From positions 719,342 to 783,341 of the forward strand of contig JAHDYR010000005.1 in the NCBI GenBank assembly GCA_019828565.1: a stretch of DNA of 64,000 nt, written 5' to 3'. The translations under genes and the position numbers were made by a program. Below the pieces are notes generated by a model. The model made no database searches. It was not told the DNA's origin and worked only from the letters and a program-made list of their open reading frames with translations. Below are positions 90-25,845 of the stretch, piece after piece. The stretch comes from Carpediemonas membranifera BICM. Its lineage: Eukaryota > Protista > Fornicata. Numbering within the stretch: position 1 is the first letter of the stretch; each line of letters starts with the position of its first letter.

Positions 90-3000
90 ATGCCTCCTCT
101 ACGCAAGGAGCGCACGAGAACCGAGAAAATCGCGACCCAGTCCGGTGCGGCGACCCTAAAGAGGTATAGCAAGATAAAGGATCCCTTCAGGGTGGATCAC
201 CAGCTACAGTGGTGGCAGAATCCCAGCCGAGAAAGGGAAATAACGGCTACCGTGCTAGAAAATGACATCCTGCTATACCACTACGCCCTGATAACCGGAA
301 GGCCATGGTGGGTAAACCAGGCGAGCCTGGAAATCCACCGCGAGGACCAGCGCCGGCCACTGCGATGCGGGCCGGCCTTCCTGAAATGTTGTTCACCTCC
401 AAGGCCGATTACTCCCTGACGGGTTTCCCAGCCACCGAGCCGGCGGCAGCGCCACAGGCGGGCGAGGCAGGAGGGCTCCCAGATGGCTGACACTCCGACT
501 TTTCGAGACCAGGTTTCGGCCACAAACACAAAAGTTCCCCAACAATAGCCATGGGCCGGAGATGATGGGCAGAAGCTGGAACAGAGCTCACCAAGCTTGG
601 AAAACAGCTTAGCTACAGAGGCCGAAGAGTGGCAAAAGTCCGAAGAGCAGCCGATTCCATCACTCGCCAAGTGCAACAGCTTACCACAGTGATCTTCTCG
701 AGGGATAACGCCGCCAGCTTCAGGATTATCGAGCCCGCCACCCGGCCTAGATCGCTGCTGTTCCGGAAAGGCTAGTTGCCCAGCACTCTCAGGCCTGCAG
801 GTCGCAAAAGCCTCACAGGGCCTGGGATCCAGGACAAGGTTCAGCCCAGCAGAGCGCCGCCTGGCTCCCTCAAGGCGGGCGGCCCAGCCCACAGCCGGCT
901 CCCTGGCAGAAAGCGCCAGGTGCGGACAGAGCCCACAGCAGCGTCAGCAACAAGTGGGCGGCCCTAGGTCGGGCCTGGGAGGATGCCCCGCCCGTCCCCC
1001 TGGCCCCCGAGCCCACAGCAGGAGAGCTTCGTGACGGACAGGCCGTCAAGCCCTGAGAGGAAAAGGTGGCATGTTCTCCGCGATAGCTGTCTACAGCAGG
1101 ACCGATGCGGGTGACCAGACCTGTGTTGGTTGGCAGGACACCACGGATTCAGCCCTCAACGTGCGGCGACGAGCTAGCCGAGTGAGGCCGAGAGACTTAG
1201 TGCTTCGCTGGACGGTTCCGGGCTTCCAAGAGCTGTGGAGCCGCATGGGATACTACTACCCGGCCAATGCCATTACAGTTCATCCACCGGACCTCTGCGA
1301 CGCTTCCACCCTCGTTAGCAGGATCGCAAACATCTGGATGGCGGACCAAGGGTGCCAAGCTGCTCGCCACCGAATCCACAGGGGACGGCCCGCCCAGGGC
1401 AACGAGCAAACCGACAACCCACCCACGAGGGCAGCCCGTCACCCCCACCGAATAATGGCAGAGCAAGTGCAGGTGATAGCCCGCCCAACGGCGGCCCAAG
1501 GACGGACCCACCCACCAGGGGCAGCCTGGGCGTTGCCCCGCACAACGGCGGCGACCCGACCGCTGGCCAACCCAGCATGGGCGATCCAGTCGCCCCCTCG
1601 TTCATTGGGGGCGAAGCAGGTTGGAACCCAACTAGCGGGGGAACCCCGCCACCATGCCCAGCGGCGAAAGTGCGGGCTCGGAGACCAGGGGTACCAAGAT
1701 GGCCCCGGCCCAACGCCGACGACTCGGCCAGAAGAGTCCCTGGCAGTGATAGTGACGTCAACCCGCCAAAGGGGTAGAGAACTGTCAGCCAACAGCAGAC
1801 TCCCCCGTCCTGCCCGCTCACCAACCCGCAGGGCAAGAGGATGCTGATCGGGTGCATTGACTTCGAAGCGTCCAAAACCCGCATCCAAGGCGGGGGATGA
1901 GGCCGTCATATGCGAAGGGGCGGTCATAGTCTTTGACCCCACCAACGGGAATATCGTCGCCAGTCTGCACGGGATGTTAGGCGAAGATATTCGGGTGGCC
2001 GACCTCGACCAGGCTCTGATGAGCTCAAGAATTCTCCACGGTTGCCCCCAGCCACCTTCGTCGACATCACCACTGGGCAGGCCCCCCAGGGATTCGAAAG
2101 CACATTCCCAAACAGCACCACATGGTGCGCGGAAATGATCGATGCCCTCCGGCGTCTCGAAGGACACCATAACGCGTTCATCCACCTGACTGCCAAAGGG
2201 GTGGAAGCTGAACGAAGTGTCCTCACGAGCGCCAAATACGTACCGGATTCCACGGCCAGGGCATGGGTAGCCACCCACCTAATCGATGAAGCCGGCCTAG
2301 ATGCGGTGTACCCCGTCTCAATAGCACCCTCACCCTCTTCTACCCCCCCTCCCAGGAGGACCGCCCGGTCCGAGAGACCCTCCCACAGGAGGTCCAGAAG
2401 GCAACCGAGCAGGCCAAGGTCTGGACCCGCGACCAGCAAAGGAGAAGGGAACCCAAGGGGGCTGTGCCCCTATCACAGAAAACGCACCAGCCTACTGTCA
2501 CTGTGCGCTTGCGGATGTATCGCTCTTCTACACAAGACTCTCCCTGGCCATCCACATGCTGTATAACCCGTGGACCTGGGCTGATGTGGGAGCGGAACTA
2601 ATCGCACGAGGGAGGGGGGAAAGTGACGGGGGCACAAAGCCCCATCATTAGAGTAGGACACGGGGTCCCAGACCTGGCTGTAGAGATCAACCGCCATAGA
2701 GGGCGAGAGGTCATCACACCCCTGGGGCAACTACAGCACGTGATCTTTACCACCAAGCCGCGTCCGAAGGAAATCCACATGGCCAACACGACCGCGCAAG
2801 AGTTCAGCACAGGAAAAGGAATCCTAAGGGTCCTTGAAAGGAGGGGGCGTAGCCGTTCTCAGCCCGGACTCCTGCCCAAGCACGAGACCCCTGGTCGTGG
2901 AGCTCCTATCCGAGTGGAACGGTAGGCGCCGCGTAGCAAGGGAGAAGGGCTACTGGCCAGACTTCTATGGCAACCGTACCACCCTGGACCCCAGGGTCAT

Positions 3001-4308: not shown

Positions 4309-5035
4309 CGAGCCATACCAAAGCAGTGGAGGGAAGAGTGCAGAGTCTAAAGGGATGTGTATATATAGCACGTTAGTGTAGGACTAGGTGAAGTGAAGGC
4401 GCCGGAATAGGTGCAGCGTTGGAGCCCGCCAGAAGGGCTGTACTGGCGCCAATGCCCGGGTGACTTTTTCTTTTCTTAAAACCCCTGTTCCCCGCAGGAA
4501 CCGGGGGCGGGTAAGAGGCAGTTGGAACGCCATCGAGGACCCGCCTGTCCGGCAGGCTGGAACTCCAGCCTTGGGAGGGGCGCCGAAAGGAGTCGCTCCC
4601 ACCTATGCGTAGTTAGGTAACGATGCTGCCAATGTGCGAGGCCAGAAGCGCTATAGAGACTGGCACGAAAGTCCCGACAAGCACCGCGAGGGCGCGGCCA
4701 GTGAAAGGGGTGGTACACCCTAGGTCAGCTCCAAGAGGGAACCTGGGCCACGTCTGGGGACTCTGGAGGAAGCAGCCGTTCTGGCCAAGCACCCCATGTG
4801 AATGGCGCATGCTTCTGGGTCCTGGAGAAATATCAAGGGCAAAGAAGACGCCTACCCGGGCCGCCCACCAACAACCCACAGGGCGGGAAGCGGCCCACCC
4901 AACGTGCTAAACAACGACGACATAGGCGCTCACCCATTGGGAAGGCAACTATGCAGATGCTAAACCCCAACAACAAGATGAAAGTGTGCAGGTAGTGCAG
5001 AATAAGGAGTGCAGGTTAAGGCAGTAACAACCTGA

Positions 5036-8000
5036 ATGCGAATAGTCTCCCTTAACAGCCAAGGACACTTAACGGGCAATGAAGACTACAGCGGATCTAT
5101 AGCGGTAGCGCTTCGCAAGCACACGAGCCCGGACGCCCTCCTCTTGCAGGAAACATTCAGGTACGGTAACTCCGTAGTCCCCTGTTGGGCGGACCTACAA
5201 TACGCATGTGCAGGGCACGCCAAACCCATCAAGGCTCGAAAGGGCAAGATTAACCTAGGCGTAGCCACGGTGATCAGCCCACATTCACAGGCAACCTGGG
5301 ATGTAGGAGTATCTGACGGCACGAACCCCCGAGTTCAAGTTAGCATCCTCGAAACCTCAAGGGCTATCGCAGTCATCAACATATACGCCCCTCCAAGTGA
5401 CCGCAGCGCAGCGGAGCTAGACCGCTTCGACCAACAGCTGGAAAACATCGTCAGAGAGTACCACGGCTTCGAGATAATCATCATGGGGGACTGGAACCGT
5501 GACCCGCGGAGCCTGCGCCATGCCACCAGCGCCACACTACAGCGAAACAATCTAGACCTAGTTTTCCCTCGTCTCACACATACATGAGTGGGAATACCAC
5601 CTCGACGCTGGATTATGCAGCTGTATCTGGGGGGATCACGAGGGCCAAAGCTAGAGTCATTGACAAAGCTGAGATGGGGCATTGGGGCTCCCCCATAGGG
5701 CAGTGGAGCTAACCTGGGACGAACCGCATTGGAAGAAACAACCGGCCAAACCCAAGCTGGAAATCCCAGGAACAACCACCTGGAATGTCCTCCCAGAGCG
5801 CAACGGGGGAAAGGGCAAGGGAATGGCCGCAACCCGATGTGGAGCTCCATGTAGATACAATCGAGTACCAAATACGGGAACTCTTATCGGTGGGATTTCA
5901 AACTTCCGCTAGGAACGTCAGACCAGGGAGATCGCAAAAAAAGGATCCCGGAGAACGTATGGAAGCAACTCATCCTAGCCCGATGGAACAAAGCGGGGGC
6001 CGCGGAAATCAAGCGGACCCTGAACAACGAGCTCCAGAAGTCATGGAAAAGCTTCAAGGAGGAGTGGACGCAGCAGGTGGAAAACAGCGCAAGGGCAGGG
6101 TATAAGACCACCAAGAAGGTCATAGCAAAACCAGGTCCACAGGTTCTGGAACGAGAAACAACACGCAGGGCTACCGGCGATGCTCAGAGGAAAGAGGTCG
6201 ATCTTAACAAGGGAAAACGAGATAGCTAGGGAGCTGCAGAGGCAATACGCCCAAGTCAGTAGTGGCATAGCACCTAGTTGGGACCAGATCCCGGCGGCCC
6301 AAACAACTGATCAACCCCCACGGAGGAGGAGGTCACGGCCGCCATCAAGTCCCTGAAGAAATCATCGGCAGGAGGCCCGGATGGTATCACGGGCGAATGT
6401 CTGAGAGACCTCCCCCAGGCGGCCTACAGGGCAATCACATGCCTCTTCCAGAAAGTATACGAGTCTGGGGAACTACCCACCACGTGGAAGTACGCCTCCA
6501 TCTCCCCGATACACAAAGTAGGGAAAGATAAGCTACTGCCAGGATCCTACCGACCCATCTCACTCACCCCCTCCTCTACCGAGCATATGGGAAGGTACTC
6601 AAATGGAGGCTCAAACCAACAGTTGAGAGGCACACCCCCAGAGAGCAGATCGGCTTCATGAAGGGAAAGACAGTCATAGACCACATCGCCCTCCTAACCC
6701 AACTGCACCAAGAAGGAGACCGGACCAGCGTGCTGCTCGACATTGCAAAGGCGTACGACACGGTTCCCAGGGACATCCTAGTCAGCAAGCTGATCAATAT
6801 GGGTGTACACCCCCACCTAGTCAGAGCAGTACAAAGCACAATGGAGAGGACCTACATTGCGGTAAGGGGATCCGACCTATGGTCCGAAACGAACCTAGGA
6901 GTCAAGCAAGGTTGCGTGGTCGCCCCCACCCTATTCATACTATTTACGGCCAACTGGATTAGCCAGGCGTCACTCAGAATACAGTACGGCGAGATACCAG
7001 ACCCGAAGCTTCCCCCACCCACCACAGACCCGGGAATGGCATCATAGCAATGTTCGTAGACGATACGAGCATCTCGGCAAAGAAAGAAAATGATGCGGAG
7101 TCCCTCACCGCCGCAATGGTGGAAGTGATAGTGGCACACAAGCTGTGTATCAGCCCAGGAAAGAACATCGTCATAAGTACCAATCCAAATGCGGAAGTGC
7201 GAATTCAAGGGGAGGCCACCCGAGCAGCGGAGTCAGGCCGATACTTGGGACTCTGGATAGCAAGTGGCCCTCATCCGCTCAGCGCATGCATCGCAAAGAA
7301 AAGAGAACAGTCGAACAAGTACATCGCCCTCGCCCGGAGAGTGGGATGGACTAAAGGCTCCACGCCCGCGGCTGTCTCCCGAGTCCATCCTCCGCACCTT
7401 CCTATGGCCAAAGATCGAATTCGGAATCGAAATCTGGGGGCCAAGTCCCAGGAGGCAGAAGGCTTTGGAACGACTGGCGAGGACTCATGGCGGGAACCGG
7501 ACCCGGTGGAGGGGGTGTCGCCCGCCTGATGATGGGATGGATGTGCTGGGAAGCGGACATGGGTGTAAGAGCGGTTAGAATCCGCGAATCGGCCCGGGAC
7601 CCTGACCGCCCATCGCCCCTAGCGGACTTCGACTGGGGAAGAGCGAACCCCAAGTCCGTTATCGGAAAGCTGAACAAGTGGGCAGACAACGTACTAGATC
7701 TGGCCCCTAGCGACCTTCACGGACCCAGACCCAGAGCAATAGCCGGGGGATGGAAGATGACAGCACGAGACATCGCCACCAAAGGTAGCCGAACAGCCAA
7801 GGCGGCCGCCGAAGTGCTAGCTGCGGAGGCAATGCAAACAATGGCAGGCGGGAGAGCACCCAAGAAACCAAAGATTATCAGAGGGGAGATGATGCTCAGG
7901 AGGGAGCTGAAGAGGGTAGTTGCAACAGCCTCCAACACGCTCCCCTCCGCTAGCAACAGCCACACAACTCGAGGAGCCGCGCTCATCATAAGCAGGAGGT

Positions 8001-8408
8001 ACCCTGGGCAGGAAATGCTCTGCGACCGTATCCAAAGAATATGCCCGATATGCACACTCGCAGCCGAACGCGAATTGATCAACTACCTCCAACTATACCC
8101 CCCCCCAGGCGCAGGCGCTAGTGGCAGTAGCCGGGTGGCTGGAAGACCAACCGCTAGGAACACAAAGCCACATCATAGCGGAGTGCCAGGGCGTCGGCCG
8201 CCCAAGTGGGTGGGAGCAGTGCTGGGAAGCTGCGGCAACACACACCATGGCAAGTAGGCTGCGGCACGGCCCAGATGGGGAGTGGTATAACTCCAGGGCC
8301 ATATTGGAGCTCCACTGGCTACTGCAACAGGAGGATGAAACAGTGAAGGAGGGTCTATTATGCGGGAAAAAGGCCCTCATGAACCTCAGAACAGGCCCAG
8401 ACCCCTAG
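5036..8408 (+). pseudogene. Element A ORF2: APE endonuclease, reverse transcriptase, C-terminal Zn finger (frameshifted)
   Basis: SLNSQG, LQET, INIYAP, MGDWN; YRPISL, LDIAKAYDTV, GVKQGC, MFVDD, YLG; CPIC...HIIAEC. Colinear with the intact ORF2 of C. Confidence 0.88.
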
Positions 8409-9553: not shown

Positions 9554-9572
9554 TTCTTTCTTTCTTTCTTTC
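9554..9572 (+). repeat. (TTTC)n 3' tail of element A
   Basis: cattaaa-ttctttctttctttctttc; same tail type at the end of C and of the 83-bp stubs. Confidence 0.75.
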
Positions 9573-9814
9573 TCTCTTTTCCGCTTTTCGTTCGTTGTTG
9601 CTAGTGTTTCCTCTGTTTCTCTGCCTGCTAAAGCGTACTGGAAGTCTATGAAGCTGTGGACTCTTGTGTTTGCTGTTCTCCATGTCTCTTGTATACAAAC
9701 CGCTTCAATGTCTCTGAGTTTGGTTTGAATTGCTGTTGCTATTGATGCCGTGAAGTCCTTTCCTCGTCCTATGTGCCCCTGAGTGTTCAGGCTTAAGATC
9801 TTGAACGTTTCCAT
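9573..9814 (-). CDS. Element B ORF2 N-terminus (APE), cut by element A
   Basis: METFKILSLNTQGHIGRGKDF...IQETWRTAN, very similar to C ORF2 up to NEKRK. Confidence 0.85.
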
Positions 9815-10146: not shown

Positions 10147-13100
10147 TTACTCCTCCGAGACCTCACTTTCACTGGCATCATCATACGGTTCAGGGTCGCG
10201 GGCCTGACCACCTTGCATGTTGGCCATGAAGGACATGAACTGTGTCATCATCTCCATGGGGTCCATCTGTCTGGTGGTCCTGGTTCTCCTGCTCTTGTTC
10301 CTGCGACGGGGCACTACCGCGGCGTCTCTGTTCTTGACCATCTCAATCGGTGGTCTGACAAGGGGGTCGGGTTCAGTGCCTGCCAGGTCTGCGGGTCTCT
10401 GCCGGGCGGCCTTGAGGGCTGAGATTTCTCGCTGTGCCTCTGCCAGTTGAAGTAGGAGCCTCTGTTTCTCGGCGTCCTGCTGGTCTGGTAGTCTGCTTCT
10501 TACCGTCCCAGCGGTGTCGTCACTGTGTCTGCTCCTCTTTCCTGACTCGGATGGGTCGTCTCTGCCTTGGCTGCCTCGCTTGCCGGCTGCTGAGGAGTGG
10601 TTGCCTCTGCGGTTGTCTCTGGCTGTTCCAAGATGTTCTCTAAACCACTCGTTTCTCTCCCGCTGGCGCCTCTCTGCCTCTTCGAAGTCGGGTCTGATCC
10701 GGAGACCGTCCTGTTCTGCTCTGTTGGCCCTGGCTTCCAGACGTTCGAGCTCCGTGTCGCGTTCATAGATTTCAGGACGTCTGATTTCTCTGTCGATGAG
10801 GCGCCCAGCCTCTCTGTCGTCAGGGTGTCTGATGTCTCTTTCGGTGGGTTGGTCAGCTTCTCTGGCGATGGGGCGTCTGACCTCATAGTCAGCCGGACGT
10901 CTGGCCTCTCTGTCGGCCAGGTGTATGGCTTCTCTGTGGGTGGGATGTCCGATCTCTCTGCCAGTAGGGCGCCTGACTTCCTGGTCGACCGACCGTCTGG
11001 CCTCTCTGTCAACTTGGTGACCCACCTCTCTGTCGTGGTGTCTCTCATCTCTGATGTCCGAGCGCCTGATCTCTCTGTGGTCACGGCGCTCGTCCTCGCG
11101 GCGTCTGTCCACCCGGGTTGCAGGGTCCAGGATGTCTCTGAAGTTCCTGCCTACCACTTGGTGCTCGACTTCGCCGACTGCCGTCTGGAGGTGAGTGTCT
11201 CTGTACGTGACCCTGAAGGGCATCTCGTCCTTGCCGTCCACGTCGGGTTTGTATCCGCTGGGTGGGATGCCCCCCATTCTGACTCTGGCCTCTTCCGGGA
11301 TCACTGTGGTGACCATGCGTCGGCCTTCCCAGCGCATGCGCTTCAGGATAGACCCCGCGTCTCTGGTTCTGATCAGTCCCCAGTCTCTGGGGATGAATGC
11401 GACTCTGATGGAGGCTCTGGCGTTCGGGGGGCTTTGACATTGGCTATGCGCCCTTCAAACTCTCTGAGTGCCTCTGCTAGCTCTTCGCATCCCCAGGTCT
11501 CTTGCCGGGCGATGCGCTCTCTGCTGGGCCACCAGTTGACGAGCTGTGACAGTGTGACCATGTTCTCTTCGTTGTGCGCTCCAAGGCCGGCTCGGCCCTG
11601 GACCGCTCTGAGTTGCTCTGGGTTGTCTAGCTCCTCTTCCAGTGTCCAGATAGGGTTCCTAGTGACTCTGTTGTCTCTGTCAGTGAAGGCGTCAGGGGAT
11701 AGGAGCAGGCCCTTCATCCCCATCGCTACCTCTGCAAATCCGAAGCCAATGCCGAACCTGTGTTCTCTGTCTGGCACTACGAGGAACCTGTTGCCCTGGT
11801 GCCCGTCTCTGATCTCTCTGAACGCTGGGTGGGGGCCAAACTCCTGGAACGCTGTGTGCCTCGGCTGGAACCCCAGCCCTGCTACGATGTCACTGCTTTC
11901 TCTGGCTGCTCTGACCTCTTCCTCAATGGCTGGCTGCAGCAGTCTGAGGGCGTCCTCTAACTCACCGATGCCGTTGGTGCCTCTGAATAGTGCTAGAACT
12001 CTGATTGCAACAGAACAGTGTGCTGTCCGCCAGTGCGCAGTGATAGCACCCCGCCGTGTGGCTGTGGTAGGGGCATACTCTCTTGGGTGCTTCCCGTGAC
12101 TGCCACCGGCTGGTCCACAGGTCTAGCCACTCCATGCTCTGCGCGTTGTTGTAATTGACTCTGAATCTCTGTTCGAGGTCGGGTCTAGCCCTGACCAGCA
12201 GCGTTGGCAGCTCGTTTTCATCCACTAGTCTCTGTGCGAAGTAGTCTCTGCTCTCTGCGGCTAAGCCGTTCGCTGCGTCTGTGAGGAGGAACATCTCCAT
12301 GTGCTTTCCCTTGGCGAACAGGTGGACTCTGCAGCCTTCTCTTCTCTCATACGCTTTGAGCTCCGTCGCTAGACGGTCGCCCCACGCCTGGAAGGTGTGG
12401 ACGTGCTGCTCTAGGTCTCTGGGGGGTCTTCCTGTCGCTATGTCCACGAAGGTCGCTGGTGGTAGGCCTGTGACAGCCCATGATGTGTGCCTTGACTGCT
12501 CGACTCTGTTGAGCGGCATGTCCTGGTAGAACATACCGTGGCCGTGGCCGACCACTTCACTGCTATCCACATCTATCATGACAATGCCTCCTTCGACCGG
12601 GATCGCTGGTGTGCCTTGTCTTGAGCTGCCCGTGTAGCTGCACTCAAAGTCAATGGCTGCTAGGACAAGTCTCTGGTTCGGCTGGGTCTCTGATAAGGGC
12701 AGGCTGCTGGTCTCGTGCTGGCTCCTCCCTTCGCCTGCCATCCTTCTGGCCTCCTGCTGATCTCTGATATGCTCTTGGACGATGTCTTCCAGGCTAATCC
12801 TCGGCGGCACCTCCTTGTCTCTGTTCACACTGTCTATAGGAAGCTGAGTGCGCTTGCCTGATGCCTCGCCCCCCAGCACCTGCCGCTTGGGGGTTCTTGT
12901 GGTTCTCTTGTTGGCACTGACTCTGTTTATCCTCTGAGACGCTGGGGTTGCCGGGGCTTGGCTACCACAGATACTGTCCGGCCTCGTCATCTCTACGTCG
13001 CTGTCGATGTCCGTGCTAGCAGACCTGTCCTCCTGGGAGGCATGTTCGGCTCTCTTGTCACGGCTGATCTCTGCTCCGATGATTTCGGCTCTGACTACTG

Positions 13101-13926
13101 CAAACTGCGGCTTGCCACTGAGCGGCGTCTCTTCCCCTCGCTTCCGGATACCGCTACGGCCGCTGGTGTCTACTCCTGAGCTATTCCATGCCGCTTGCCA
13201 CACCACTGGTGCCTCTGGTGCCTGCAGTCTCAGGATGTCTCTTGCCTCTTCCATGTACCTGGTGATGGGCCATGCCTCCGTGTCTTCCAGGTCCAGTAGA
13301 ACTCTGAAGGTGCCATCCTCTTGCTCTATGGCTACTCTGGTGATGGGTCCTCTGTTGGACGGGTCCCACACTTGCTCGCCGCTGAGGCACTCGGGGGCTT
13401 CATCCTCTGCTGTCCCTGTGATGACCGAGTACATGCCAGTCTCTCTGTTTTCGACGCTGTCTCTGACGTTGTCCCACTGAATGGGGTTCTGGCCTCTGGG
13501 TTGCAGGACTGCTTGTTCGATGGACTGCTCCTTGGGCCATCTGGCCATGTCCTTGTGCCCTGGTCTCACTGATGTGGGCTCGTTAGAGCTGGCGATGCGC
13601 TGAATCTCTGCTTCTCTGGGGTCTAGGGCCTCTGTTACCATGATGAAGAGGTCGCGAAGCCCGTGGATGCCGTTCGGATGTCTGAGGATGGTGTCCCTGT
13701 TGTCGGTCACTCCTGAGGCTGTGAGGATCCTTCTGACGTTGGTTAGTACTTCCTTGCGGGCTGTGGAGCTTGCGCCGAAGGACTTTTCGGAAAAGTCGTC
13801 ACTTCTGCGCAGTAGTAAGGTCCGGGCGTTTCCTTCCTTGATCAGGTAGCTGTCTAGTAGTTCTCTGATGGTACTCCACTGTTTTTGCGTAGATTCTCTG
13901 GTTTTCTCTGATATTTCTACCTGCAT
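10147..13926 (-). CDS. Element B ORF1 (~1250 aa, frameshifts near 12000 and 11400) with Maelstrom-like exonuclease domain at ~12020-12670
   Basis: ORFs 11962-13926, 11373-11777 and 10147-11337 align in order with C ORF1; AIDFEC, PVEGG, AKGKHME, CPYHSHTAGCYHCALAD. Confidence 0.82.
10770..11085 (-). repeat. Degenerate 24-bp / 8-aa tandem repeat (DRE[IVA]RRP-like, ~12 copies) in B ORF1
   Basis: DREVGHQV DREARRSV DQEVRRPT GREIGHPT HREAIHLA DREARRPA DYEVRRPI AREADQPT ERDIRHPD DREAGRLI DREIRRPE. Confidence 0.8.
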
Positions 13927-14520: not shown

Positions 14521-17081
14521 GTGTGGGAAGGGCAGACACCTGGCACAGTTCTGTAAGTCCAGTGTAAATCCGTCCTCCTATTTAACTCCCGCAACCGTCA
14601 AGACAACCCCTCAGGTGTGGACCGTAATTTCTGGTGGTCCCAACCTCCCGGTAGTATCGGCAGATATCACCGCACATTTTGGAGAGTCCGTGACTTGGAA
14701 GCTCGTGCTATATGACTGCGGCGCAGATGTCTGCTTGGTCAACCCCGACAAGGCCGCGTTGGCGGGCCTAACGCCGACCAAGTTGCCTGTGCCGATCAGG
14801 ATCAAGAGCCCAGGCGGGTACATCACGGCTCACACGTCTTATGAGATTCCGCTTCACATTGCCAAGTCTCCCATGACTCCCAAGGGACTCCGGGATACGA
14901 TCACGGCATACGGAATCTCCAGCGACTGCGACCTAGTTCTCAGCTACGGTATCATGGTTGCGTGGGACATCCTGCCATCCCTCGGCGCCGAGTCAGACGA
15001 AGTGGACGACGACGCAGAGCTTCCCGAACTTGACTCATCCGAGCGTCAGTTTTACACACTCTCAAGCACTTCACAGTCACTGCAGGACCGGCTAGTGGCA
15101 CGCTACGCTGATACGTTTAAGCCCCGAGTCAGTTTCAGCAAGCTGGAGCCCTACGACTTAGTCCTTCGGGACAACCGAGTTGTCTCGAGTCGACCCTATT
15201 ATATACCACCGCCGAAAGAGCCATTGGTACAAGCTCACATCGACGAGCTCCTACAGAAACGCTTCATCGAAGCATCCTTCTCGCCGTACTCGTCCCCCAC
15301 GATCATCGTTCCCAAGGGGAAGGACAAGACGAGATTCGTGGTAGACTTCAGGCGGATTAACGACTTAACCGACCCTTTCGACTATCCAATCCCTAAGATT
15401 GACGAGTGTCTCGCCCGCCTCGCGGGTTCCACGATCTTCGCGACCCTCGACCTGTCGAGCGGTTATCATCAGGTGGAACTCACCGAGCGCTCACGTCCCT
15501 TAACCGCGTTCAATACGCCTATGGGGAAATATCATTACACGGGAATGCCGTTCGGTCTCAAGAATGCTGGTGCCCATTTCCAGTGGGCGATGGAGACCGC
15601 TTTCGGCGACCTGGTCGGTAAGGCCTGTATCATATATATTGACGATATCATCGTCTTCGGACGTGATGAGGGACAGTATCTTCGCAACCTCAACAGCGTG
15701 CTGGCTCGCGCGCAGCAGTTTGAACTGCTCCTCAACCGCGAGAAGTCCCATTTTGGCCTCGCCGAGGTCGAGTTCCTCGGTTGGTTAGTCTCCGGATCGG
15801 GTTACAAGATCGCACCTGACCGGATCCACGACGTCATGCAACTGAAATTACCAAAAACTAAGCGTGGCGCCCAAGCCCTGATGGGGTTCCTTAACTATAT
15901 GCGAGACTTCGTTCCCCACTTCGTGCCGATAGCGTTCCCACTCCAGCAAGCAGCTTCAGGGAAGGCAGAACCAGGGGGACCGGGTCAGGCAGAGGCCTTG
16001 GCCAAGATGAAAGACATCCTATGCTCTGCCCCTGCCCTTGAGCTATTCGACGTCAACAAGGATCATGTCGTAATGACTGACGCCTCCGATCTCGGCGAAC
16101 GATCAGATCTCAGCTACTCACCTCCTGGGCAATGCCCACCTACCCATCTACACGACGCTCGAGCGCTTGCGCACCCAGGGCCTTAAGGCCCCGGTCGAGC
16201 GGGTTGCTGAGGTGATCAAAGCATGTCCCATATGCCAACTGACTACCAGGCCGACTGAGGCCACCCGTCCCTATCTCCACACAGCTACGATTAAGCCTTT
16301 CGAAAGTGTGGCGATGGACACCATCGGGCCGTTGCCCGAGTATAATGGCTACAGGTACATACTGGTGGTCGTCGATATGGCTTCCCGACTGACCGAGCTG
16401 GTTGCGCTCCGGTCTACCCGTGCCGACGAGGCCGTCAGGGCGTTCACCGACTCATGGGTGCTGCGGTACGGCGCGCCCAAGGTCTTGCAAACTGACGGCG
16501 GCAGCCAGTTCAACAACAAGCTGTTTCGAGAGCTGGCGGTGCGGGTCGGGTTCACGCCACACATTACCACGGCCTACCACCCCCAATCAAATGGGCTGGT
16601 AGAGCGGGCCAACGCCACGGTACTCCGCATCCTCAAGGCTCGCAAATACGAGCTTGAGTCCGAGGATTGGGTCGAGTCCCTTCCTGTGGCGCGTTTCCTG
16701 GTCAACTCGGCGCCCCGAGCGGCGACCCGTCTGACCCCCTATGATGATGAGATCATTTATGGAACAACGTTCATGGTCCCGGGTGAAGTGTTGGTCACGA
16801 CTGAGTCGGACTCGCGACCGGCTCAGGACCTCCTGGAAGCAGTGCAGCTGGCACGTGATCTAGCCGCAGCGCGGATCCAGGCTATGCGCGACGACGCGAT
16901 GCAGGCAGCGTCAGGACAGACTCCCATTACGTCACCCTATGTGCTAGTTAAGTACCCGAACAACCCCGCGAAGGAATTGAAGATCCCGGCCGAGAGGGTT
17001 CGGGCATTCGTGGGCGACATATCGCGGGACAAGGCCCAGAGGCTGGCGGCAACGTCGGACTCAGAGTATCTGGTTGAGGAG
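14521..17081 (+). mobile_element. Gypsy-1 chromovirus segment: end of gag knuckle, protease, RT, RNase H stub (internal deletion), integrase
   Basis: LYDCGA, VVDFRRIN, LDLSSGYHQ, MPFGLKNA, YIDD, TDAS, then a jump to H..H..CPIC, MDTIGP, TDGG, NGLVER. Confidence 0.92.
17066..17081 (+). repeat. Left 16-bp TSD of element C (right copy 25736-25751)
   Basis: gtatctggttgaggag on both sides; removing C restores the Gypsy-1 frame EYLVEEILD. Confidence 0.93.
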
Positions 17082-17678
17082 TTCACCAATGATTTCAGCA
17101 AAGTGGAAACACTTCGATCATGGATGGACAAGGACCAACAGGCCTGGCCTATATGGATAGGGCAGTGCCCCATGGAGCTCAGAAGGAGCGGCCTTGGCCT
17201 CCTGTCTGAACATTCAAGGGTTGCTATCAGGGCATACCGCTGGGCGCGAGTGGGAGCTCCACGCCCATACCAAGGAATCAAAGTGTCTTCATGGAACGTA
17301 TGTTTACAAGGAAAAGGAAAACAACCGTCGAGGGCCAGTGCTAGCACCGGCGGCTACATGGTTTTGTCAAGACCACAAGGAAGGAAGGGCAGCACAAAAG
17401 GGAAACAGGGGCCGTCGATAGAGGCTAAAAAGGAGACTACGAACAAAGCAACAACAACTACACAGAAAGGCCCCGCTACTCAGAAAAGGGCGACGCATTT
17501 TTAGGACCGCGCCTTTTTGAAAGAATGGCCTATATAGTACGGAGCATGGACAATGGGAGAAACTGGAAGGCCTGGACGGAGACCTCACCCGGATATGTAC
17601 ATGTGGCCCGACTTTCGGACCCAAAAATTCCGACCCAGTTTATGGACTAGGAAAAGGGGAGAAATTTTGCACTCAACA

Positions 17679-20600
17679 ATGCAGGTAGAAATACCGACAA
17701 GGATCAGGGATTCCACGCAGAAGCAGTGGGAGGACATCAGGGAACTACTGGACAGCTTCCTCGCTGAAAGGAACGATTCAAGGACTCTACTTCTTCGTAA
17801 GAACAGGCAAGTTTACAGGAAAGTCGCTCAATGCGAACTCCAAAGGACGCAAGGAAGTAATCATGAACGCCAGACGCATCCTCTTCGCAACCGGCGTCAC
17901 TGACAACAAGGACATCATCCTCAGGAACCCATGCGGCATCCACGGCCTCCGCGACCTTTTCTACATGCTCACAGAGGCGCTCAACCCCAGAGACGAGGAA
18001 GCAAAGGACATGGCACAGGCACTGGAGCCCAAGACGCTGAAAGCGGGCTTCACTGGCATGGCAAGATGGCCATCTGAGAAGGACATCGAGACGGCGATCC
18101 TCAAGCCGAAGGAAGATGGGCCCATCGAATGGGATGTAGACAGGGACAGCGTCAAGAAGGCCGAAGGGTCGTTCATACTGGTATCAGGGGCTCATGGAGA
18201 CGAGGCCGTAGAAGGCGTGCCTTACGACAAGGTATGGGATCCGGCAAACCAAGGCCCGGTCACCAGAGTGGCCTACGAGCAAGAGGACGGCAAGTACAGG
18301 GTCATCCTAGAGCTAAGCGACACGTCAGCATGGTCCATCAGCCGCTTCATGGAGGAGGCTAGGGACATCCTCAGGCTTCAGGCACCGGAGGCCCCGGCCA
18401 TATGGCAGGCAGCATGGAACAAGTCAGGGATCTACCTGAAGGGCAGAACCAATATCCTGGGCGAAGGGGAGGAGACCCCCTTAGCAACGAGCCGCCGTTC
18501 CGGAAGGTGAGGCTGGAAGTGCTCAAGGCCACCTCGGTCCGCAGCAATAGGGACGAACATGCCGATCTGGACAGGTCGTCCGCTAGCACGGTCATCGACG
18601 GAGACGAGGAGCAACATGTCAAGGACAAGGAGGAACGACGCCAGCAGGCCACCATGCCCGGCAGAAGAAGCCTCGACGACAGCCTCCTGGAAGTGAACAA
18701 GGACATGGTCGGGGCCAACCAAGGCAAGATCGACCAGGACGAGGAGGTCGACTCAAACAAGGTCAGCAGCCAGCCGCCGAGGATGCCTAGAAAGGACAAG
18801 GAGAAACGACTGGTGATCGGAGCCATCGACTTCGAGTGCGCAGACCCTGGCGTCAAGAAGGCAGGGATCCCTGCCATCCCGGTTGAGGGCGGGATCGTAC
18901 TCTTGACCTCAGCACTGGGGACATTCTTGGACACGGGCATGGCCTGTATTACCAGGACATACCGGCAGCAAGCATGGACCAAGCGAGGTACACGGCATGG
19001 GCAGTGACGGGGCTGCCGCCGGCCACCTTCGTGGAGGTCGGGACGGGGCGGCCGCCGATCGAGTATGAGAAGCACATACATACTTTCAGGGACTGGGCCA
19101 ACCGCCTGGCGGCTCAGCTGGCAAGGATCGAAAGGTCGGAGGGTTGGAAGATAATCATGTATGCAAAGGGGGTGGAGATGGAAAGCTTCCTCCTCACGAA
19201 CCCCACAAATGGACTGGAGCAAGGAACCAGGGAATTCTTCCAAGCTAGGCTGGTGGACGAGAAGAAGCTACCAGAGATCCTGGAGAACAACGGCAAGGAG
19301 GAGGCTGGCCAAAACCTCAGGGACAACCTCGACAAGGCCAACTACCTGGAAGCAGTAACAACATGGTCAAATGGATGGCAGAACAGGAGCGAGCCCAAGG
19401 GAGTCTGTCCGTACCACAGACACACCGCGGGTTGCTACCACTGTGGGTTGGCGGATACAGTAGTCTTCACAGCCAGGATCAGGGCCCTATGCAAGGAGAG
19501 GATGAGCACCCCAGACGTCTACCACTACATGGGTAAGGCACTCGACAAGACCATGGAAGCAGTCGGGAAGGCGGAGCCGGGCATGGATATCATGGGAGGC
19601 CCGGAATTCGCGACAAGGAGGGACACCTTTGAGATCTTCGGCACGTACCCGATCGGGGACGCAAGGGACGTCAGCAGGGAAGTCGGCGACAGGATCCTCG
19701 TAGTCCCGGACAACGGACACCGCTTCGGCATCGGCTTCGGGTTCGGGGAGGTTCTGTTGGGCATGAAGGGCATCTTACTGGCCCCCTCACAATCATGGAC
19801 AACGAAGGTGTACTGGAGAGAAGCCCGCTATGGACCATCATGGAAGAGCCACGGCTAACCAGCTCCGCATGGTACGCGTCAGGAAGGGCCTAGGGGCAGC
19901 AAGGGAGGAGGACATCATAACCATGGCCATGCTATACGAGTGGTGGCCCTCGAAGGAGGCTACGGCTCATCAAGGAGTCTGGGGCTGCGACGACCTAGCA
20001 GAGAGCCTCAGGGACTATGAGAAGGTCATAGTCAACGTCAAGGCCCCCAGGAACAGGGGTAGGATCACCCTAGGGGCGAGCTTCATCCCGAGAGACTGGG
20101 GGCATGGTCAGGGTCAGCGAGGCTGGGACCATCCTAAGCCGCATGCGCAAGGAAGGGGCCAGACTAGTCTCGGCAGCTATCCCGGACGAGCCCAGAGCCA
20201 ACACAGTCAATGTCCCAGGCATCACGTATGTCCCCACCATCGACGGAAAGTCCGAACAGCCATACCAAAGTAGGTTCTTCGACAACGGCCTGGAGGAAAA
20301 GGCGAGGCGGATTAGAACCAGGATGGTGGGCAGGCACTTCGGCCAGGACGCGGATCAAGGACATCACGACCAGCATGGAGACGGGGAAGAGGACAGAAGG
20401 GTAGGACACGGAGCCGGCGGTAGAGCTGGTGTCAGAGCTGACGACAGAACCGGCGACAGAGCTGGTAACATGAACAGGACCTCGGATCGTAACCACGGAG
20501 GAGACGACAGGGAGAGACAGGACAACACGGGAACGCAGATGAGAGGCTCGTTCAGCGGGAACACCTGGGCCGGTAGAGGCTCAGAGGGAGGCATGGACAA

Positions 20601-21066
20601 CAGCAAGGATCACTCTTCCTCCACGACGCTCAAGCGCAAGGAGGGCAGCACGAGTAGGATCATGGACTCGGACAGCGGAAAGAGAAGCAGGCACGAAGAG
20701 GACATGGACTGGGAGTCTGGAAGCAGACAGGCAACCGGCATGGACTCGGAGAAGCTGCGGCTCCGAAAGCAGTTGGCAGAGGCGCAACAAGAGATCTCAG
20801 CGCTCAAGGCTGCCCGACTCATGCAAGAGCAAGGCCACGGAAGGTTGGTGCTCTCCGGCGTCGCGACTAAGCCCAGCAAGGAGAAGCCCACGATCCCCCG
20901 GCACAAGCACAAGAAGGCTAAGAAGGCCAAGCAGATCTCACCCATGGACCTGATGACCCAGTTCATCACGGTAATGCAGAGTCTACAAGGACAGCAAGTG
21001 AGTCAGGCCGAGGACAGCTGCAGCGGCAGTGGGGGAGTCCACGGAGGAGGAGTAAGGACATGGTAA
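17679..21066 (+). CDS. Element C ORF1 (~1130 aa, several frameshifts) with Maelstrom-like exonuclease domain at ~18810-19460
   Basis: Starts MQVEI as in B; consecutive ORF pieces colinear with B; AIDFEC, PVEGG, AKGVEME, CPYHRHTAGCYHCGLAD; coiled coil QLAEAQQEISALKAAR. Confidence 0.82.
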
Positions 21067-21386
21067 AGCAGTATTCTTTCAAGGAACAAGCAACATTTTC
21101 TTTATAATTCACAAGCCCTGGCTCCCACCCAGGGCCCGGCATTAGCTGAAATGCACTGCCGGTAGGCTGTAGCGGCAGCCAAAGGGGGGTCACGTCATAT
21201 CGTCCCCCTCCTAAGTACCCTGCCCGAAGAATGGAAGGTCACCAGGTGGTAACAAGGTTGGCCTGACAAGGGTCACCGAGACCGGCATCTAGGCCCCTTG
21301 TTAGGACAAGGATAGCAGGAGAGGAGCGGGAAGCTGGGGCTCCCAAATTCTGGGAATTCGCAGGATAAGGACACAGGACAAAGGCA

Positions 21387-24300
21387 ATGGTAACCTACAA
21401 GATACTTAGTCTGAACACAGAGGGACACATAGGAAGAGGAAAGGACTTCACGGCGTCTATGGCAACGGCGATTCAGCTAAGGTTGAAGGACATAGAGGCA
21501 GTACTCATACAAGAGACATGGAGAACGGCGAATACGAGGGTTCATTGCTTCATGGACCTTGACTACGCACTAGCAGGGAGGGAGACGGAAGAGGACCTGG
21601 TCTTAGCCAACGAAAAACGAAAGGCGGATGTCAAAAGTCAGCACCGCATCAACCGACAACTAGGCATAGCAGGCAATGACGAACCTGCGCCAAGATGGAA
21701 GGGAACAAGGGAAGGCATCGGCACGATAGTGAGCCCACACGCAACTGCAAAGTGGGACATCGGCATAACGGACAGCCTATCGGGAAGAGTGCAAGCCAGC
21801 ATAATGAGAACCGGCAGGGACATACTAGTCATCAACGTGTATGGCCCTCCATCCGGCCACAGCAAGCAGGAGAAGGATGGATTCAGGGACACTATACAGA
21901 AGATCATGGACATGAAAGGGAGCATGGAGGCCATAATTATGGGAGACTGGAACATCGACCCAGGCCAGATGGAAAGATCCACCCGGTGGAAGGATATGAT
22001 GGAGAAGCACAGGCTCAAAGCCATCATACCCAAGTCTGGGACGCTCACATCAGGAACATCAACCCCGGACTTTGCAGTGACAACACCAGGAATCCAGGGG
22101 GCGGAGATTGAGGTGGTAGAGTCTCAGAAGGTCGGGGTATGGGGCTCAGCACACAATGGAATCACACTAGCATGGAAGGAACAACGGTACTATGGCAGAA
22201 GTGAGCGAGACGTGGCTCTGGCCATACCCGAGGTGCACACCTGGCCCATGAAAAAGAAGGAGGGGCCAGTCACAGTCTCAAAGCTGAACAGGATCAAGAG
22301 CTCGGACCAATGGGAAGAGACTATAAGAGCATGCATGGGCGACCCAGTGAACAACAGGGGAGCAAAGGCAAGGGACAAAGTGTTCGGGAACGGAGTGTGG
22401 AGCGAACTCCAGCGAACCCCATGGACAGAAATAGGCAACAGGACCAGGAAGGAAAGGATGAAAGAGGAGCTGGAGAAATTCTGGGGAGAGCGCAGGGCCA
22501 AATGGGTGGCCGACATCAGCAGAAGTGCAAAAAGGGGGTATAGGGCCTCAAGGGCCTCAGTGGAAGCTGCCATCAGAAGGTGGTGGTGTGACAACCAATA
22601 CAAGGGAATGCCGGAGAGCCTCCTCAAGGACGGAGTGATAACCACGGACAAGGCGGCCATCAGCGAGATCCTCTTGCAACAGTATGCTAGAGTCAGCAGA
22701 GGCAGGGAACCCACCTGGAAGACATGGAGGGGCAGGGACGGAAATGAGTTCAAGGAAAGCGAGGTCAAAGCCGCAATCAAAAGGATCAGGAGGGACACCG
22801 CACCAGGGCCTGACCTCACATCTGGAGACATGCTGAGAGAGCTGGATGAGAAAGGCCTTAGGGAAGTGACGAGGCTCATCAACAGGGTCTACAGGGAGGG
22901 CGACGTACCCAAAGCATGGAAGTATGCCACAGTGTCGGCCATACACAAGACAGGGAAGCCAAGGGTCAAGCCGGAATCATATAGACCAATATCCTTGACA
23001 CCACTGCTGTACAGGGTCTATGGTAGACTGCTCAAGATACGTCTGGAAGCAGCAACGAAAAGGTTCATACCAAGAGAACAGGCTGGTTTCCAGTCAGACA
23101 GGGACGTCATCCAGCAGATACAGTACATTGTGCAGCGGCACCAGGAGGGGGGTGAGACCACGTCAATCTTTCTGGACATCGAGAAGGCATATGACACGGT
23201 ACCAAGGGACATTCTCATGGATAAGCTACAGGGTATGGGGGTGGAGGAGCACTTGATCAGGGCAATTCAAGGCACAATAAAGGAAACCTGGATATCAGTC
23301 AAGGGGGCAAAGGCATGGGAAAGAACCAACAGGGGAGTTAAGCAAGGGTGCGTCCTGGCACCGACACTGTTTGTGCTGTTCATGGCTAACTGGCCCCACC
23401 TGGCCAGAAAGAAAATCAAGGGAGAACGGTACGACATCAGAGAACCGCCAAGGACCACGAGCCACCTCAGCGACCGACTACCGGCAGCACTTACCATGTT
23501 TGTGGATGACACTGCGGTCACAGGGAGCAAACCGGAGCATAGCCAGATCGTCGCCAACATAATGGTGGACATAATCAGAGAGCATGAAATGAGGGTGAAC
23601 GCCCAGAAGAATGTAATGATTAGCGTGGACAGAACAGCCCTAGTCAGGATCGAGGGGGTAACACTACTGCCAGAGAAGGAGGCGAGATACCTGGGATTAT
23701 GGATCGCAAGTGGGAAGGACCCTATGTCGGCCTGCATAAGGCGGAAACAGGAGCAGAGCGAAAGGTACAAGAGACTGGTGAGATGGGCAGGGTGGACCAG
23801 GGCAAACATGCCAGCACTAGCGAGCAGGCTACTACTGGAAATATATATATGGCCCAGGATCCTCTTCGGAGTCGAGGTGTGGGGGAACGCACCGGGAGGT
23901 AGAAGGATCTGGAATGACTGGCAGGGAATCATGGCAGGAACAGGACCGGGAGGGGGCGCAGCCATGAGGCTGATGAATGGATGGGTGGACCTCCAGGCAC
24001 ACATGGAATGGCTGGCAGTCAAAAGGATAGTCAACTACAGGGACCAGGATATACCAGTCAGAAACAGAGAATGGGGGCGGGGCACGGTTATGTGGGAAGC
24101 TAGGGAGAGAGTGCAGCATCTACTGGAGGGCACCAGAGAGGGAGCCCCTAAACCAGCGCTACTGGATTATGGCATGGAAACGATCAGGAGGGGGTGGATG
24201 AAGCGGTGCAAAAGCCGTACGGCACTAGGACTAATGGAAATCATGGGGACAAGGAAATTAAGCAAGTGTCTGCAAGGTAAGCCTACGGTAGACCGAAAGG

Positions 24301-24830
24301 CTGGGAAGGGGCAAAGCAGGGCGGAATGGAAGAGAATTGTATCCATTGCAGCCAATGTCAGCCCATCCCCATCGTCGGCAGAGAGAGGGGAGGGCCCTAT
24401 GAGAGCCATCACAGAGCTGGCCCAAGGCGCTGACCTGAAGAGAGAAATTAGCAGACTATGCCCCCTATGCTCGGAGGAGTCGGAGGTGAGCCTGTTCTAC
24501 AGGATCATTAGGGAAAAGCCAGGACCAGCAAGGAAGCAGGAAATGATCAGGGAGTGGGCAGAGGGCCAGAGGCTAGGATCGGCAGCGCACATAATCTGTG
24601 AATGCCCGGCAGTAGACAGGGGAGAAGCTTGGACAAAGCTGTGGACAGCAGCGAAGCACAAAACTAAGGACTTGGAAGTAAGGCAGGGCCCCCAGGGCGA
24701 ATGGTACCAGGAAAGACCCATCCTAGAATTACAGCAACTAATAATATGGGGCTCGGAGGACATTTGGGAAGGCCTCACGGCAGGACTACGGGAACTGGCA
24801 AAGGTTTACAACAGCTTCAAGGTGGAATAG
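21387..24830 (+). CDS. Element C ORF2, 1147 aa: APE endonuclease, reverse transcriptase, C-terminal Zn finger
   Basis: Open ORF; SLN, QET, GDWN, TPDF, SAH; APGPD, YRPISL, QAGF, LDIEKAYD, GVKQG, FVDD, YLG; CPLC...HIICEC. Confidence 0.96.
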   Translation: MVTYKILSLNTEGHIGRGKDFTASMATAIQLRLKDIEAVLIQETWRTANTRVHCFMDLDYALAGRETEEDLVLANEKRKADVKSQHRINRQLGIAGNDEPAPRWKGTREGIGTIVSPHATAKWDIGITDSLSGRVQASIMRTGRDILVINVYGPPSGHSKQEKDGFRDTIQKIMDMKGSMEAIIMGDWNIDPGQMERSTRWKDMMEKHRLKAIIPKSGTLTSGTSTPDFAVTTPGIQGAEIEVVESQKVGVWGSAHNGITLAWKEQRYYGRSERDVALAIPEVHTWPMKKKEGPVTVSKLNRIKSSDQWEETIRACMGDPVNNRGAKARDKVFGNGVWSELQRTPWTEIGNRTRKERMKEELEKFWGERRAKWVADISRSAKRGYRASRASVEAAIRRWWCDNQYKGMPESLLKDGVITTDKAAISEILLQQYARVSRGREPTWKTWRGRDGNEFKESEVKAAIKRIRRDTAPGPDLTSGDMLRELDEKGLREVTRLINRVYREGDVPKAWKYATVSAIHKTGKPRVKPESYRPISLTPLLYRVYGRLLKIRLEAATKRFIPREQAGFQSDRDVIQQIQYIVQRHQEGGETTSIFLDIEKAYDTVPRDILMDKLQGMGVEEHLIRAIQGTIKETWISVKGAKAWERTNRGVKQGCVLAPTLFVLFMANWPHLARKKIKGERYDIREPPRTTSHLSDRLPAALTMFVDDTAVTGSKPEHSQIVANIMVDIIREHEMRVNAQKNVMISVDRTALVRIEGVTLLPEKEARYLGLWIASGKDPMSACIRRKQEQSERYKRLVRWAGWTRANMPALASRLLLEIYIWPRILFGVEVWGNAPGGRRIWNDWQGIMAGTGPGGGAAMRLMNGWVDLQAHMEWLAVKRIVNYRDQDIPVRNREWGRGTVMWEARERVQHLLEGTREGAPKPALLDYGMETIRRGWMKRCKSRTALGLMEIMGTRKLSKCLQGKPTVDRKAGKGQSRAEWKRIVSIAANVSPSPSSAERGEGPMRAITELAQGADLKREISRLCPLCSEESEVSLFYRIIREKPGPARKQEMIREWAEGQRLGSAAHIICECPAVDRGEAWTKLWTAAKHKTKDLEVRQGPQGEWYQERPILELQQLIIWGSEDIWEGLTAGLRELAKVYNSFKVE

Positions 24831-25751
24831 AAGCATGTCATGAACCCCTGACTCCAGGACCGGGAAGGGATGGACAAGGAATCAGCCATGGACCACCCTC
24901 GCTGGGTGCTAAGCTCCTGGGATCAGTGAGGAAAGGCCCCACGTATCCCGGTAGCCAGGAACCAAAGCAAGGGAAGGAACGACTGCAAGGAAAGAACAGG
25001 AAGGACAGACCAGAAATAAGAAAGAAAGGACATGCAACAAGGACAGAGCAAGGATAAGGTCAAGGAAATCCATATTCATATGGTTGCACCACTCGTTGGG
25101 ACCCCAAGGAAACTGCAGGGACTGGCCACGGGGGTCGGAGGGGCACAGGTGCCCCTGCCGCCCTGTTAACGACATGGGAAACCAAGGGACATGTAGTGCA
25201 AGCGAAATGTTGTAAGGGGTAACAGGGACAACCAGGCCTAGTGCCTGGGGCTGCCGCTGACCCACGCCACCTAACCGGGGTAGACAGCATGGACTTAGTC
25301 ACTTTCCCCGCCTTCGGGTAGGCTTCTTAACAGAGTCGAGGGGGCATGGAATTGGGGAACCGGACAGACGAGAGGGTGCCGTGGCTGAACGGCTCTACAA
25401 GGACTGCAGGGAAGCAAGGAGTGTCATAGTCAAGGTTCTGCAGGACGATCCTGCCTGTCAATGCCCCGAGGACAGACCCCCAGGCTCCCCGGATAGTTGC
25501 CGGACTTTCAGGGAGACAGGAAAGCATATTTGCACGGAGATGGCCGCAGGGCCTCTGGGGCGATTGGAATCGGCTTTCCGCGGAGACAGTAGCACCGAAA
25601 GCCCAAGGCAAACGCTGCTGACCAGTTTGCCACGGGAAATAGGCAGTACCCCGGGGCACTCAGCTCCAAGACAACGGGAAACAAGCTCAGTCCGGAGTCA
25701 GAATCCAAGCACCATAAATTTCTTTCTTCTTTTCTGTATCTGGTTGAGGAG

Positions 25752-25845
25752 ATACTCGACCAGACCAAGGAGAAAGCTGTCTCAAAGCGCAGTTTCTTGG
25801 TCAGATGGACCAATTATGAGCCTGAAGAGGACTCCTGGGAACCCT
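25752..25845 (+). mobile_element. Gypsy-1 segment 2: middle of the integrase chromodomain
   Basis: Reads ILDQTKEKAVSKRSFLVRWTNYEPEEDSWEP in frame after the TSD. Confidence 0.88.

Follow-up and report, generated by a model that had tools for sequence, protein, structure and literature searches.

What does a predicted exonuclease domain do in the first open reading frame (ORF1) of a long interspersed nuclear element (LINE), whose product is usually a passive RNA coat? We investigated this question in a stretch of 64,000 nucleotides from the free-living flagellate Carpediemonas membranifera BICM (GenBank assembly GCA_019828565.1, contig JAHDYR010000005.1, positions 719,342 to 783,341 of the forward strand), called the window below and numbered from its first letter, which contains three diverged LINE copies that we denoted A, B, and C. 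An earlier note on this DNA had claimed that their ORF1 shares the motifs of an exoribonuclease of the type known from Maelstrom and from the arenavirus nucleoprotein (NP). Our results point to an apparently new and undescribed type of LINE ORF1, which contains a DEDDh domain resembling Maelstrom with conserved catalytic residues.

The elements are LINEs with an apurinic/apyrimidinic endonuclease (APE) and a reverse transcriptase (RT) of the non-LTR type (LTR, long terminal repeat) in ORF2, and one of them is full length with a target-site duplication. Copy C (17082..25735, +) is an 8.65-kb APE+RT element without LTRs, bounded by an exact 16-bp duplication (17066..17081 and 25736..25751, both +) whose sequence occurs twice in the window and 0 times in 100 shuffles. 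Its 3′ end is simple sequence, TAAA plus a T-rich tract without poly(A), and it lies within the coding end of a Ty3/gypsy-like element, where the interrupted motif is presumably chromodomain-like. ORF1 of copy C (17679..21066, +; ~1,130 codons) consists of a conserved N-terminal domain, a linker of low conservation, the nuclease domain, a conserved downstream domain, a low-complexity region, and a C-terminal coiled-coil-like stretch. The assembly breaks it by five frameshifts (~17799, 18490, 18900, 19843, and 20090), which are likely assembly errors because the Hsp70 copies of the window also carry single frameshifts. Contigs of run X1, which may be the source sample, have an indel at 17799 and at 19843 (1 contig each, depth <5) and leave the frameshift at ~18900 uncovered; the NCBI model P0007 reads through two further frameshifts. 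A spacer (21067..21386, +) that has 72% identity with its copy B counterpart and contains TAAAG, a T-rich tract, and GC-rich hairpins leads to an intact ORF2 (21387..24830, +) with APE, RT, and a C-terminal Cys/His knuckle (Pfam RVT_1, E = 1.7e-32; Exo_endo_phos_2, E = 1.5e-6). The best PDB sequence match of this ORF2 is human L1 ORF2p (E = 8.7e-19), which at 70 bits is weak for clade placement.

Copy B has ORF1 at 10147..13926 (−), with frameshifts at ~12010 and ~11400, both downstream of the nuclease motifs, and 99.7% identity to the NCBI model P0021 over 639 residues. The start of its ORF2 (APE; 9590..9814, −) extends for ~75 codons and then meets what is probably the T-rich 3′ end of copy A (9545-9590). 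The two abut with opposite orientations, as an insertion of A into B would leave them; a target duplication that would fit copy A was not found within the searched part of the window. Of the three copies, A has diverged furthest and is the most heavily disrupted, and its ORF2 (APE + RT; 5006..8387, +) is frameshifted.

The nuclease domain lies at 1840..2560 (+) in copy A, 12007..12672 (−) in copy B, and 18807..19500 (+) in copy C, where it is recognised by its motifs and by the predicted fold of the homologous copy B domain. IDFE begins at 1856 (+), 12654 (−), and 18825 (+) in A, B, and C, respectively; it is followed by PVEGG in B (12600) and C (18879), with ICEGA as the copy A version (1908), by AKGVEAE (~2192), AKGKHME (12315), and AKGVEME (19163) in A, B, and C, and by CPYH-x7-HC(A/G)LAD in B (12075) and C (19406). 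In copy A, CPYH (~2465) and HCALAD (~2499-2516) are in different reading frames. The key sites of copy C (+) are the D-x-E at 18828-18836, the zinc Glu in PVEG at ~18885, the Exo II Glu in AKGVEME at 19163-19183, and CPYH-x7-HCGLAD at 19406-19456. Copy B alone retains the whole domain in a single frame and was the query for all searches and for the first model; copy C has one frameshift within the domain (~18900) and copy A several, all motifs and all ten key residues being present in both, spread over their frames. Patterns derived from the observed copies themselves were searched for in 30 base-shuffled windows: the zinc motif never occurred, and the DFE and AKG patterns occurred 0.1 and 0.2 times per shuffled window, respectively. 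The short VEG pattern by itself is at chance level (1.2 per shuffled window, with one stray match at 43479). A profile built from the relatives described below found the domain at these three sites and nowhere else in the window. Thus the motifs reported for ORF1 of three diverged copies are real, although the spacer of the zinc motif is x7 rather than x6, and the placement of the domain in a LINE ORF1 is borne out by the APE+RT ORF2 and by the APE-like start of ORF2 downstream of two ORF1 relatives from other contigs.

We searched 1.84 billion representatives with phmmer and obtained 13 matches at E ≤ 0.001. Twelve were kept, six of them named Carpediemonas proteins and six from other contigs; P0016 (E = 1e-4), a repeat-rich protein of 2,086 residues without the motifs, was dropped. 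A profile search added P0021 and P0022. The nearly identical relatives are C. membranifera proteins, and seven relatives in total carry no Carpediemonas label. DNA was readable for two of these seven (L001 and L002), both with an APE-type ORF2 downstream: L001 has an intact ORF1 of 1,129 residues and L002 an ORF1 with a single frameshift, and in each the next frame opens with APE-like sequence and is then cut off by the end of the contig. Homology among the relatives spans the N-terminal domain, the nuclease, and the downstream domain, and their tree has three deep groups plus P0010. A search confined to proteins of 2,189-5,000 residues returned no relative, viral contigs and prokaryote genomes contained no related loci, and the databases searched, in which the family is small, contained no stand-alone or viral member. 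All relatives share, after the nuclease, a domain of ~200-270 residues (~11420-12000, −, in copy B; 19500-20100, +, in copy C) with the motifs G-x-KG-(I/L)-LL, WP, AN, and FIPR-x-WG in most; it had no match in Pfam or among folds, and nothing usable in the Atlas.

The nuclease domain is conserved and under purifying selection. Six of the seven whole domains, whose pairwise identity is 24-81%, keep ten key residues (D, E, the zinc E, the Exo II E, the D on strand 5, C, H, H, C, and D). The Exo I D-x-E, the Exo II acid (as Glu), and the Exo III H-x4-D are kept in these same proportions (6/7), on the elements where DSSP places them as expected, and the E on strand 2 together with C-x2-H...C ahead of the last helix is found in 7/7. 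P0019 was left out of this tally, its model beginning inside the domain. We measured selection across copies, a check that the earlier note had called for, as the ratio of nonsynonymous to synonymous differences per site (pN/pS) from local alignments. For copy B vs. copy C, the nuclease gave 0.41 (187 codons with synonymous sites close to saturation; bootstrap 0.33-0.52) and 0.26 (32 codons), in contrast to 0.91 (0.71-1.18) for the linker, the control treated by the same method; L001 vs. L002 gave 0.40 and 0.42. Three observations temper the case for a conserved catalyst: Tyr replaces the first catalytic Asp in P0008, Leu replaces the Exo III His in P0013 (a fragment outside the seven-domain tally), and the N-terminal domain (0.43, B vs. 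C) is as constrained as the nuclease. A chance origin of the motifs, or a pseudogene relic, was rejected in view of the shuffles, the purifying selection, and the conservation of the ten residues.

The domain very probably has the DEDDh fold of the Maelstrom/NP type, as judged from predicted models. AlphaFold modelled the copy B domain from 13 sequences with a predicted local distance difference test score (pLDDT) of 72.8. With this model, Foldseek against the PDB returned 140 matches at E ≤ 0.001, every row listed being a DEDD-family 3′-5′ exonuclease, and the named entries in the viral list were mostly DEDD exonucleases too. VIA-align placed Maelstrom structures at ranks 3, 6, and 7 (Z = 9.7-10.3, 177-190 residues aligned) and arenavirus NP at ranks 26 and 28 (Z = 7.3-7.4), the latter with the highest identity among the matches listed (20-21%). 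The model of the 849-residue P0021 has a mean pLDDT of 57.6, with 83-94 over residues 511-610 and 631-680, 61-76 in the zinc loop, and low values elsewhere. With it, the three Maelstrom structures occupy the first three places among 48,161 chains (Z = 11.0, 10.5, and 10.2; root-mean-square deviation 3.9-4.3; 197-212 aligned), the other 47 rows among the matches listed having at most 179 aligned residues, and Lassa and lymphocytic choriomeningitis virus (LCMV) NP rank 8 and 10 (Z = 9.6 and 9.5). The ESM Atlas returned unlabelled, mostly arthropod clusters (0.93-0.94), PF13017 Maelstrom (0.89), and DEDDh_C (0.84), with a recognition score under the bar, and served as a lead only.

Several results count against so specific an assignment. 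The domain had no meaningful match in Pfam, PHROGs, or PDB sequences, and none to Maelstrom or arenavirus NP in Pfam or the PDB; neither of the two was among the Foldseek matches listed; the zinc loop of the copy B model has a pLDDT <50; and RNase T and DinG come first with that model in VIA-align (Z = 10.4). With the P0021 model, the lead of Maelstrom over the DinG exonuclease (10.1), ESRP1 (10.0), and RNase T (9.9) is ~1 or less in Z, so the ranking alone is not decisive and the assignment rests on the longer alignment and on residue spacing. The Pfam Maelstrom profile PF13017 matched 0 of 13 alignment members at E ≤ 10. Weak matches of the domain to ALR/sulfhydryl oxidase and to TetR_C were rejected. 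The spacing of C618, H621, C630, and D634 equals that of C290, H293, C302, and R306 in Bombyx Maelstrom (C-x2-H-x8-C-x3-D), with the zinc Glu on strand 2 in both. As candidates for the two further His residues of the EHHCHC set, a His in (G/Y/F)-x-HG(L/M) is common without being invariant, and a His stands at the (T/H/S)GLPP position in two of the eight covering rows. The domain, on these models, is nearer to Maelstrom than to arenavirus NP, though a Pfam member of neither, and its E-C-H-C set is predicted to bind zinc. Hence the DEDD-type fold that the earlier note had proposed recurs in the models, Foldseek, and VIA-align as a DnaQ-like DEDDh fold (five-strand sheet, helices A-C), and the proposed E-C-H-C set agrees with the Bombyx spacing. 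Two other proposals needed amendment: the family is DEDDh, but the third acid is a Glu on the helix after strand 4, giving a DEED-h site; and the Maelstrom/NP label stands in that Maelstrom structures are the closest solved folds and NP is near the top, while the zinc loop is Maelstrom-like and too short for the basic arm of Lassa NP. Among the sources used for these and the following comparisons (PMC7968707, PMC4408791, PMC5563155, PMC3985635, PMC3359990, PMC2628886, and bioRxiv 10.64898/2026.05.21.726589), nidovirus ExoN is described as tolerating D or E at the Exo II position.

The domain is probably catalytically active and, held a shade less firmly, likely to act on RNA, the latter because of EhMael, TbRIF4, and Lassa NP. 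In the same sources, the protist Maelstrom EhMael is an active RNase, trypanosome RIF4 (TbRIF4) is a DEDDh protein picked out in a Maelstrom screen that prefers double-stranded RNA (dsRNA) and is needed for RNA interference (RNAi), and Lassa NP is dsRNA-specific according to the title of one paper. A 3′-5′ exonuclease acting on DNA, which would resect target-site flaps or edit cDNA ends at insertion, is suggested by the scores of TREX1, the DinG exonuclease, RNase T, and DnaQ, all close to that of Maelstrom, and by the frequent acceptance of DNA by DEDDh enzymes; we nevertheless hold it very unlikely, since the characterised E-C-H-C members in the cited work act on or bind RNA and DNA processing would be expected on ORF2. 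The domain might instead be mainly the RNA-binding module of ORF1, in place of an RNA recognition motif (RRM) or zinc knuckle, with catalysis weak or secondary. RRM, CCHC knuckle, PHD, and esterase had no Pfam match in the window ORF1 pieces or in 11 relatives, in line with the earlier note, which had seen none of these, although the flanking domains have low confidence in the model and could hold a remote RRM. The single-stranded RNA (ssRNA)-binding module of Bombyx MAEL, as cited, and the two Carpediemonas models that each lack one catalytic residue also fit such a module. Metazoan Maelstrom has lost its acidic residues, however, whereas they are kept here in 6/7 whole domains down to 24% identity, and the two residue losses may be dead copies; we consider a mainly RNA-binding domain quite unlikely.

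What would such a nuclease be selected for? Counter-silencing, the destruction of dsRNA or small-RNA triggers, is the role that we infer as the leading one, tentatively and at somewhat less than an even chance. ORF1p of L1 coats its own RNA in cis. The present ORF1 would be a long multidomain protein, made in many copies and coating the element RNA as in other LINEs, with a zinc-stabilised Maelstrom-type 3′-5′ exoribonuclease as its central domain, in which two metals would be coordinated by the D-x-E on strand 1, the Glu on the helix after strand 4, and the H-x4-D on the last helix. A nuclease in an RNA coat would have to leave the single-stranded RNA of the element intact, a demand that suits an enzyme preferring duplexes, as Lassa NP and TbRIF4 do, and it could shorten dsRNA made by a host RNA-dependent RNA polymerase (RdRP) or by antisense nesting before this enters RNA silencing. 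We favour this role because of that need to spare the element's own RNA, because two of the three active relatives prefer duplexes, and because the window encodes an RdRP of the eukaryote type (PF05183, E = 5.3e-29) and contains antisense nesting. Three points speak against it: EhMael was shown to degrade ssRNA, such nucleases in known protists serve silencing rather than oppose it (both from the cited sources), and the eight-residue His-Cys loop of our domain leaves no room for the basic arm with which Lassa NP contacts the second strand.

Alternatively, the nuclease could benefit the host or restrain the element: it would then be a silencing factor that was captured and that processes small RNAs directed at rival transposons or at the element's own family. 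The requirement of TbRIF4 for RNAi would suit it, as would the position of the elements within a dense nest of other retrotransposons, one of which copy C interrupts. The family is still mobile, with a perfect duplication and copies 99% alike on other contigs, and self-limiting elements are expected to be outcompeted, as argued in PMC5408684; a pro-silencing nuclease is the least probable of the roles considered, and barely probable at all. Returning to counter-silencing, a wider scenario, which we regard as doubtful, is that a LINE lineage of old age acquired a Maelstrom-type nuclease in active form, the ancestral state of an anti-transposon factor, built it into the RNA-coating ORF1, and turned it against host RNA silencing; the family would then be a retrotransposon counterpart of arenavirus NP and a possible link in the movement of the nuclease among hosts, transposons, and viruses. 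As a precedent, it has been proposed in the literature that viral helicases carried in the ORF2 of insect LINEs may suppress silencing. Proven transposon-encoded suppressors of silencing are few, and the candidate here is a compact domain of 230 residues that can be expressed and assayed directly.

The main rival of counter-silencing concerns the ends of the element RNA. An active exoribonuclease could trim poly(A) or read-through from the element's own RNA and leave a defined U-rich 3′ terminus at which ORF2 can start target-primed reverse transcription. In copy C, TAAA and a T-rich tract precede the duplication and poly(A) is absent, and what is probably the end of copy A is alike; a similar TAAAG and T-rich tract, followed by GC-rich hairpins, stands directly after the ORF1 stop in B, C, L001, and L002, where it is a possible end of an ORF1-only mRNA. 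In other LINEs, ORF1 works in cis on the RNA that encodes it. Many LINEs, on the other hand, end in simple repeats without such a nuclease, and a single event per RNA needs no domain in an abundant ORF1 protein. Trimming is the role proposed for the DEDDy ORFs of rotifers (PMC5408684), and we rate it here as possible but unlikely.

Other non-coding parts are shared by the family. A structured leader of ~190 nucleotides is common to the 5′ ends of copy C (17082-17275, +), copy B (14322-14525, −), and a solo piece (38250-38450, −), with two-sided change in 11 of 53 predicted pairs across the three sequences. The solo piece belongs to the 5′ untranslated region of a fourth family member (37915-38440, −; 69% identity to copy B), behind which no ORF1 was found. 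The ORF1-ORF2 spacers are 70-72% identical within each of two pairs (21060-21340, +, and 9860-10140, −; L001:5250-5550 and L002:4650-4950), and the folding of the spacer is only modestly better than that of shuffles (z = −1.77). No Rfam family matched the 5′ leader or the spacer.

The RdRP of the window belongs to a gene of 1,180 codons (42051-45593, −) with an N-terminal helix-turn-helix/Myb-like stretch and a C-terminal RNase H1 domain (PF00075, E = 1.1e-7), a fusion that looks unusual. Ty3/gypsy-like retrotransposons form a nest at 14501-17081, 25752-29967, and 29921-36580, the last with a near-identical tandem repeat of ~2.17 kb (99.8%), possibly an assembly artefact. The two Hsp70 genes (55726-58029, +, and 58730-61033, −) are 99.9% identical and flank a tRNA gene (58400-58472) as an inverted duplication; each carries one frameshift, which is not the same in the two.

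How does this ORF1 compare with known systems? Our full-text literature searching, which lay outside Repbase, Dfam, and most subscription journals, found no Maelstrom-like or DEDDh domain in a LINE ORF1 among the matches listed by title and abstract start. The view in the earlier note that no description was known agrees with this for LINE ORF1, but DEDD-type nucleases in retroelements do have precedent (PMC5408684). These are the DEDDy (DEED) ORF3 of the bdelloid Vesta/Juno LTR and Athena/Terminon elements, which resemble our domain as retroelement-borne 3′ exonucleases of the DEDD superfamily with a D-to-E change, and in Vesta2 and Vesta5 with a Cys-His-Cys motif (PMC5408684 and PMC6431247); they differ in being RNase D-like, in a separate ORF, and in LTR or Penelope-like classes, whereas our domain is of the DEDDh, Maelstrom-like kind and forms part of a LINE ORF1. 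The map label MAEL, which appears four times in the supplement on adintoviruses and Polintons (PMC8502044, Suppl. Fig. S2), also points to a Maelstrom-like gene carried by a mobile element, though that is a small stand-alone gene of a DNA virus-like element of animals. Among LINE ORF1 types I-V (RRM/CCHC, L1-like, PHD, and esterase; PMC4120745), the position upstream of an APE+RT ORF2 and the long coiled-coil-like part are alike, and the esterase type is an example of an enzyme within ORF1; an exonuclease is present in none of these types, and the word occurs 0 times in the main text of that paper. The present family would thus be a new ORF1 type for LINEs, with a likely enzyme in place of a passive coat.

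The MAEL domain (Bombyx 5af0/9nhc, Drosophila 4ybg; PF13017) is alike in the predicted DEDDh fold, with the longest structural alignments, in the strand-2 E, and, for Bombyx, in the C-x2-H-x8-C spacing, and the active protist form EhMael (EHI_192630) is alike in having both the catalytic and the zinc set. Unlike Maelstrom, the LINE domain has no PF13017 match, a structural identity of 7-12%, a Glu at Exo II, no HMG box, a place inside a retrotransposon ORF1, and two further EHHCHC His residues that are not clearly kept. The C-terminal exonuclease of arenavirus NP (Lassa 3r3l, LCMV 4o6h) shares DEDDh and ECHC, an HCALxD-like last motif, and the packaging of a parasite's RNA by the same protein, with the highest identity among the fold matches (16-21%); it differs in its lower Z (7.3-9.6), an alignment shorter than that of Maelstrom, the lack of a sequence match, its different carrier, and a zinc loop that is short in the LINE. 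To protist Maelstrom and arenavirus NP as the known settings of the DEDDh+ECHC nuclease, the LINE ORF1 would add a third, with the catalytic residues intact. The family also bears on the origin of both arenavirus NP and Maelstrom.

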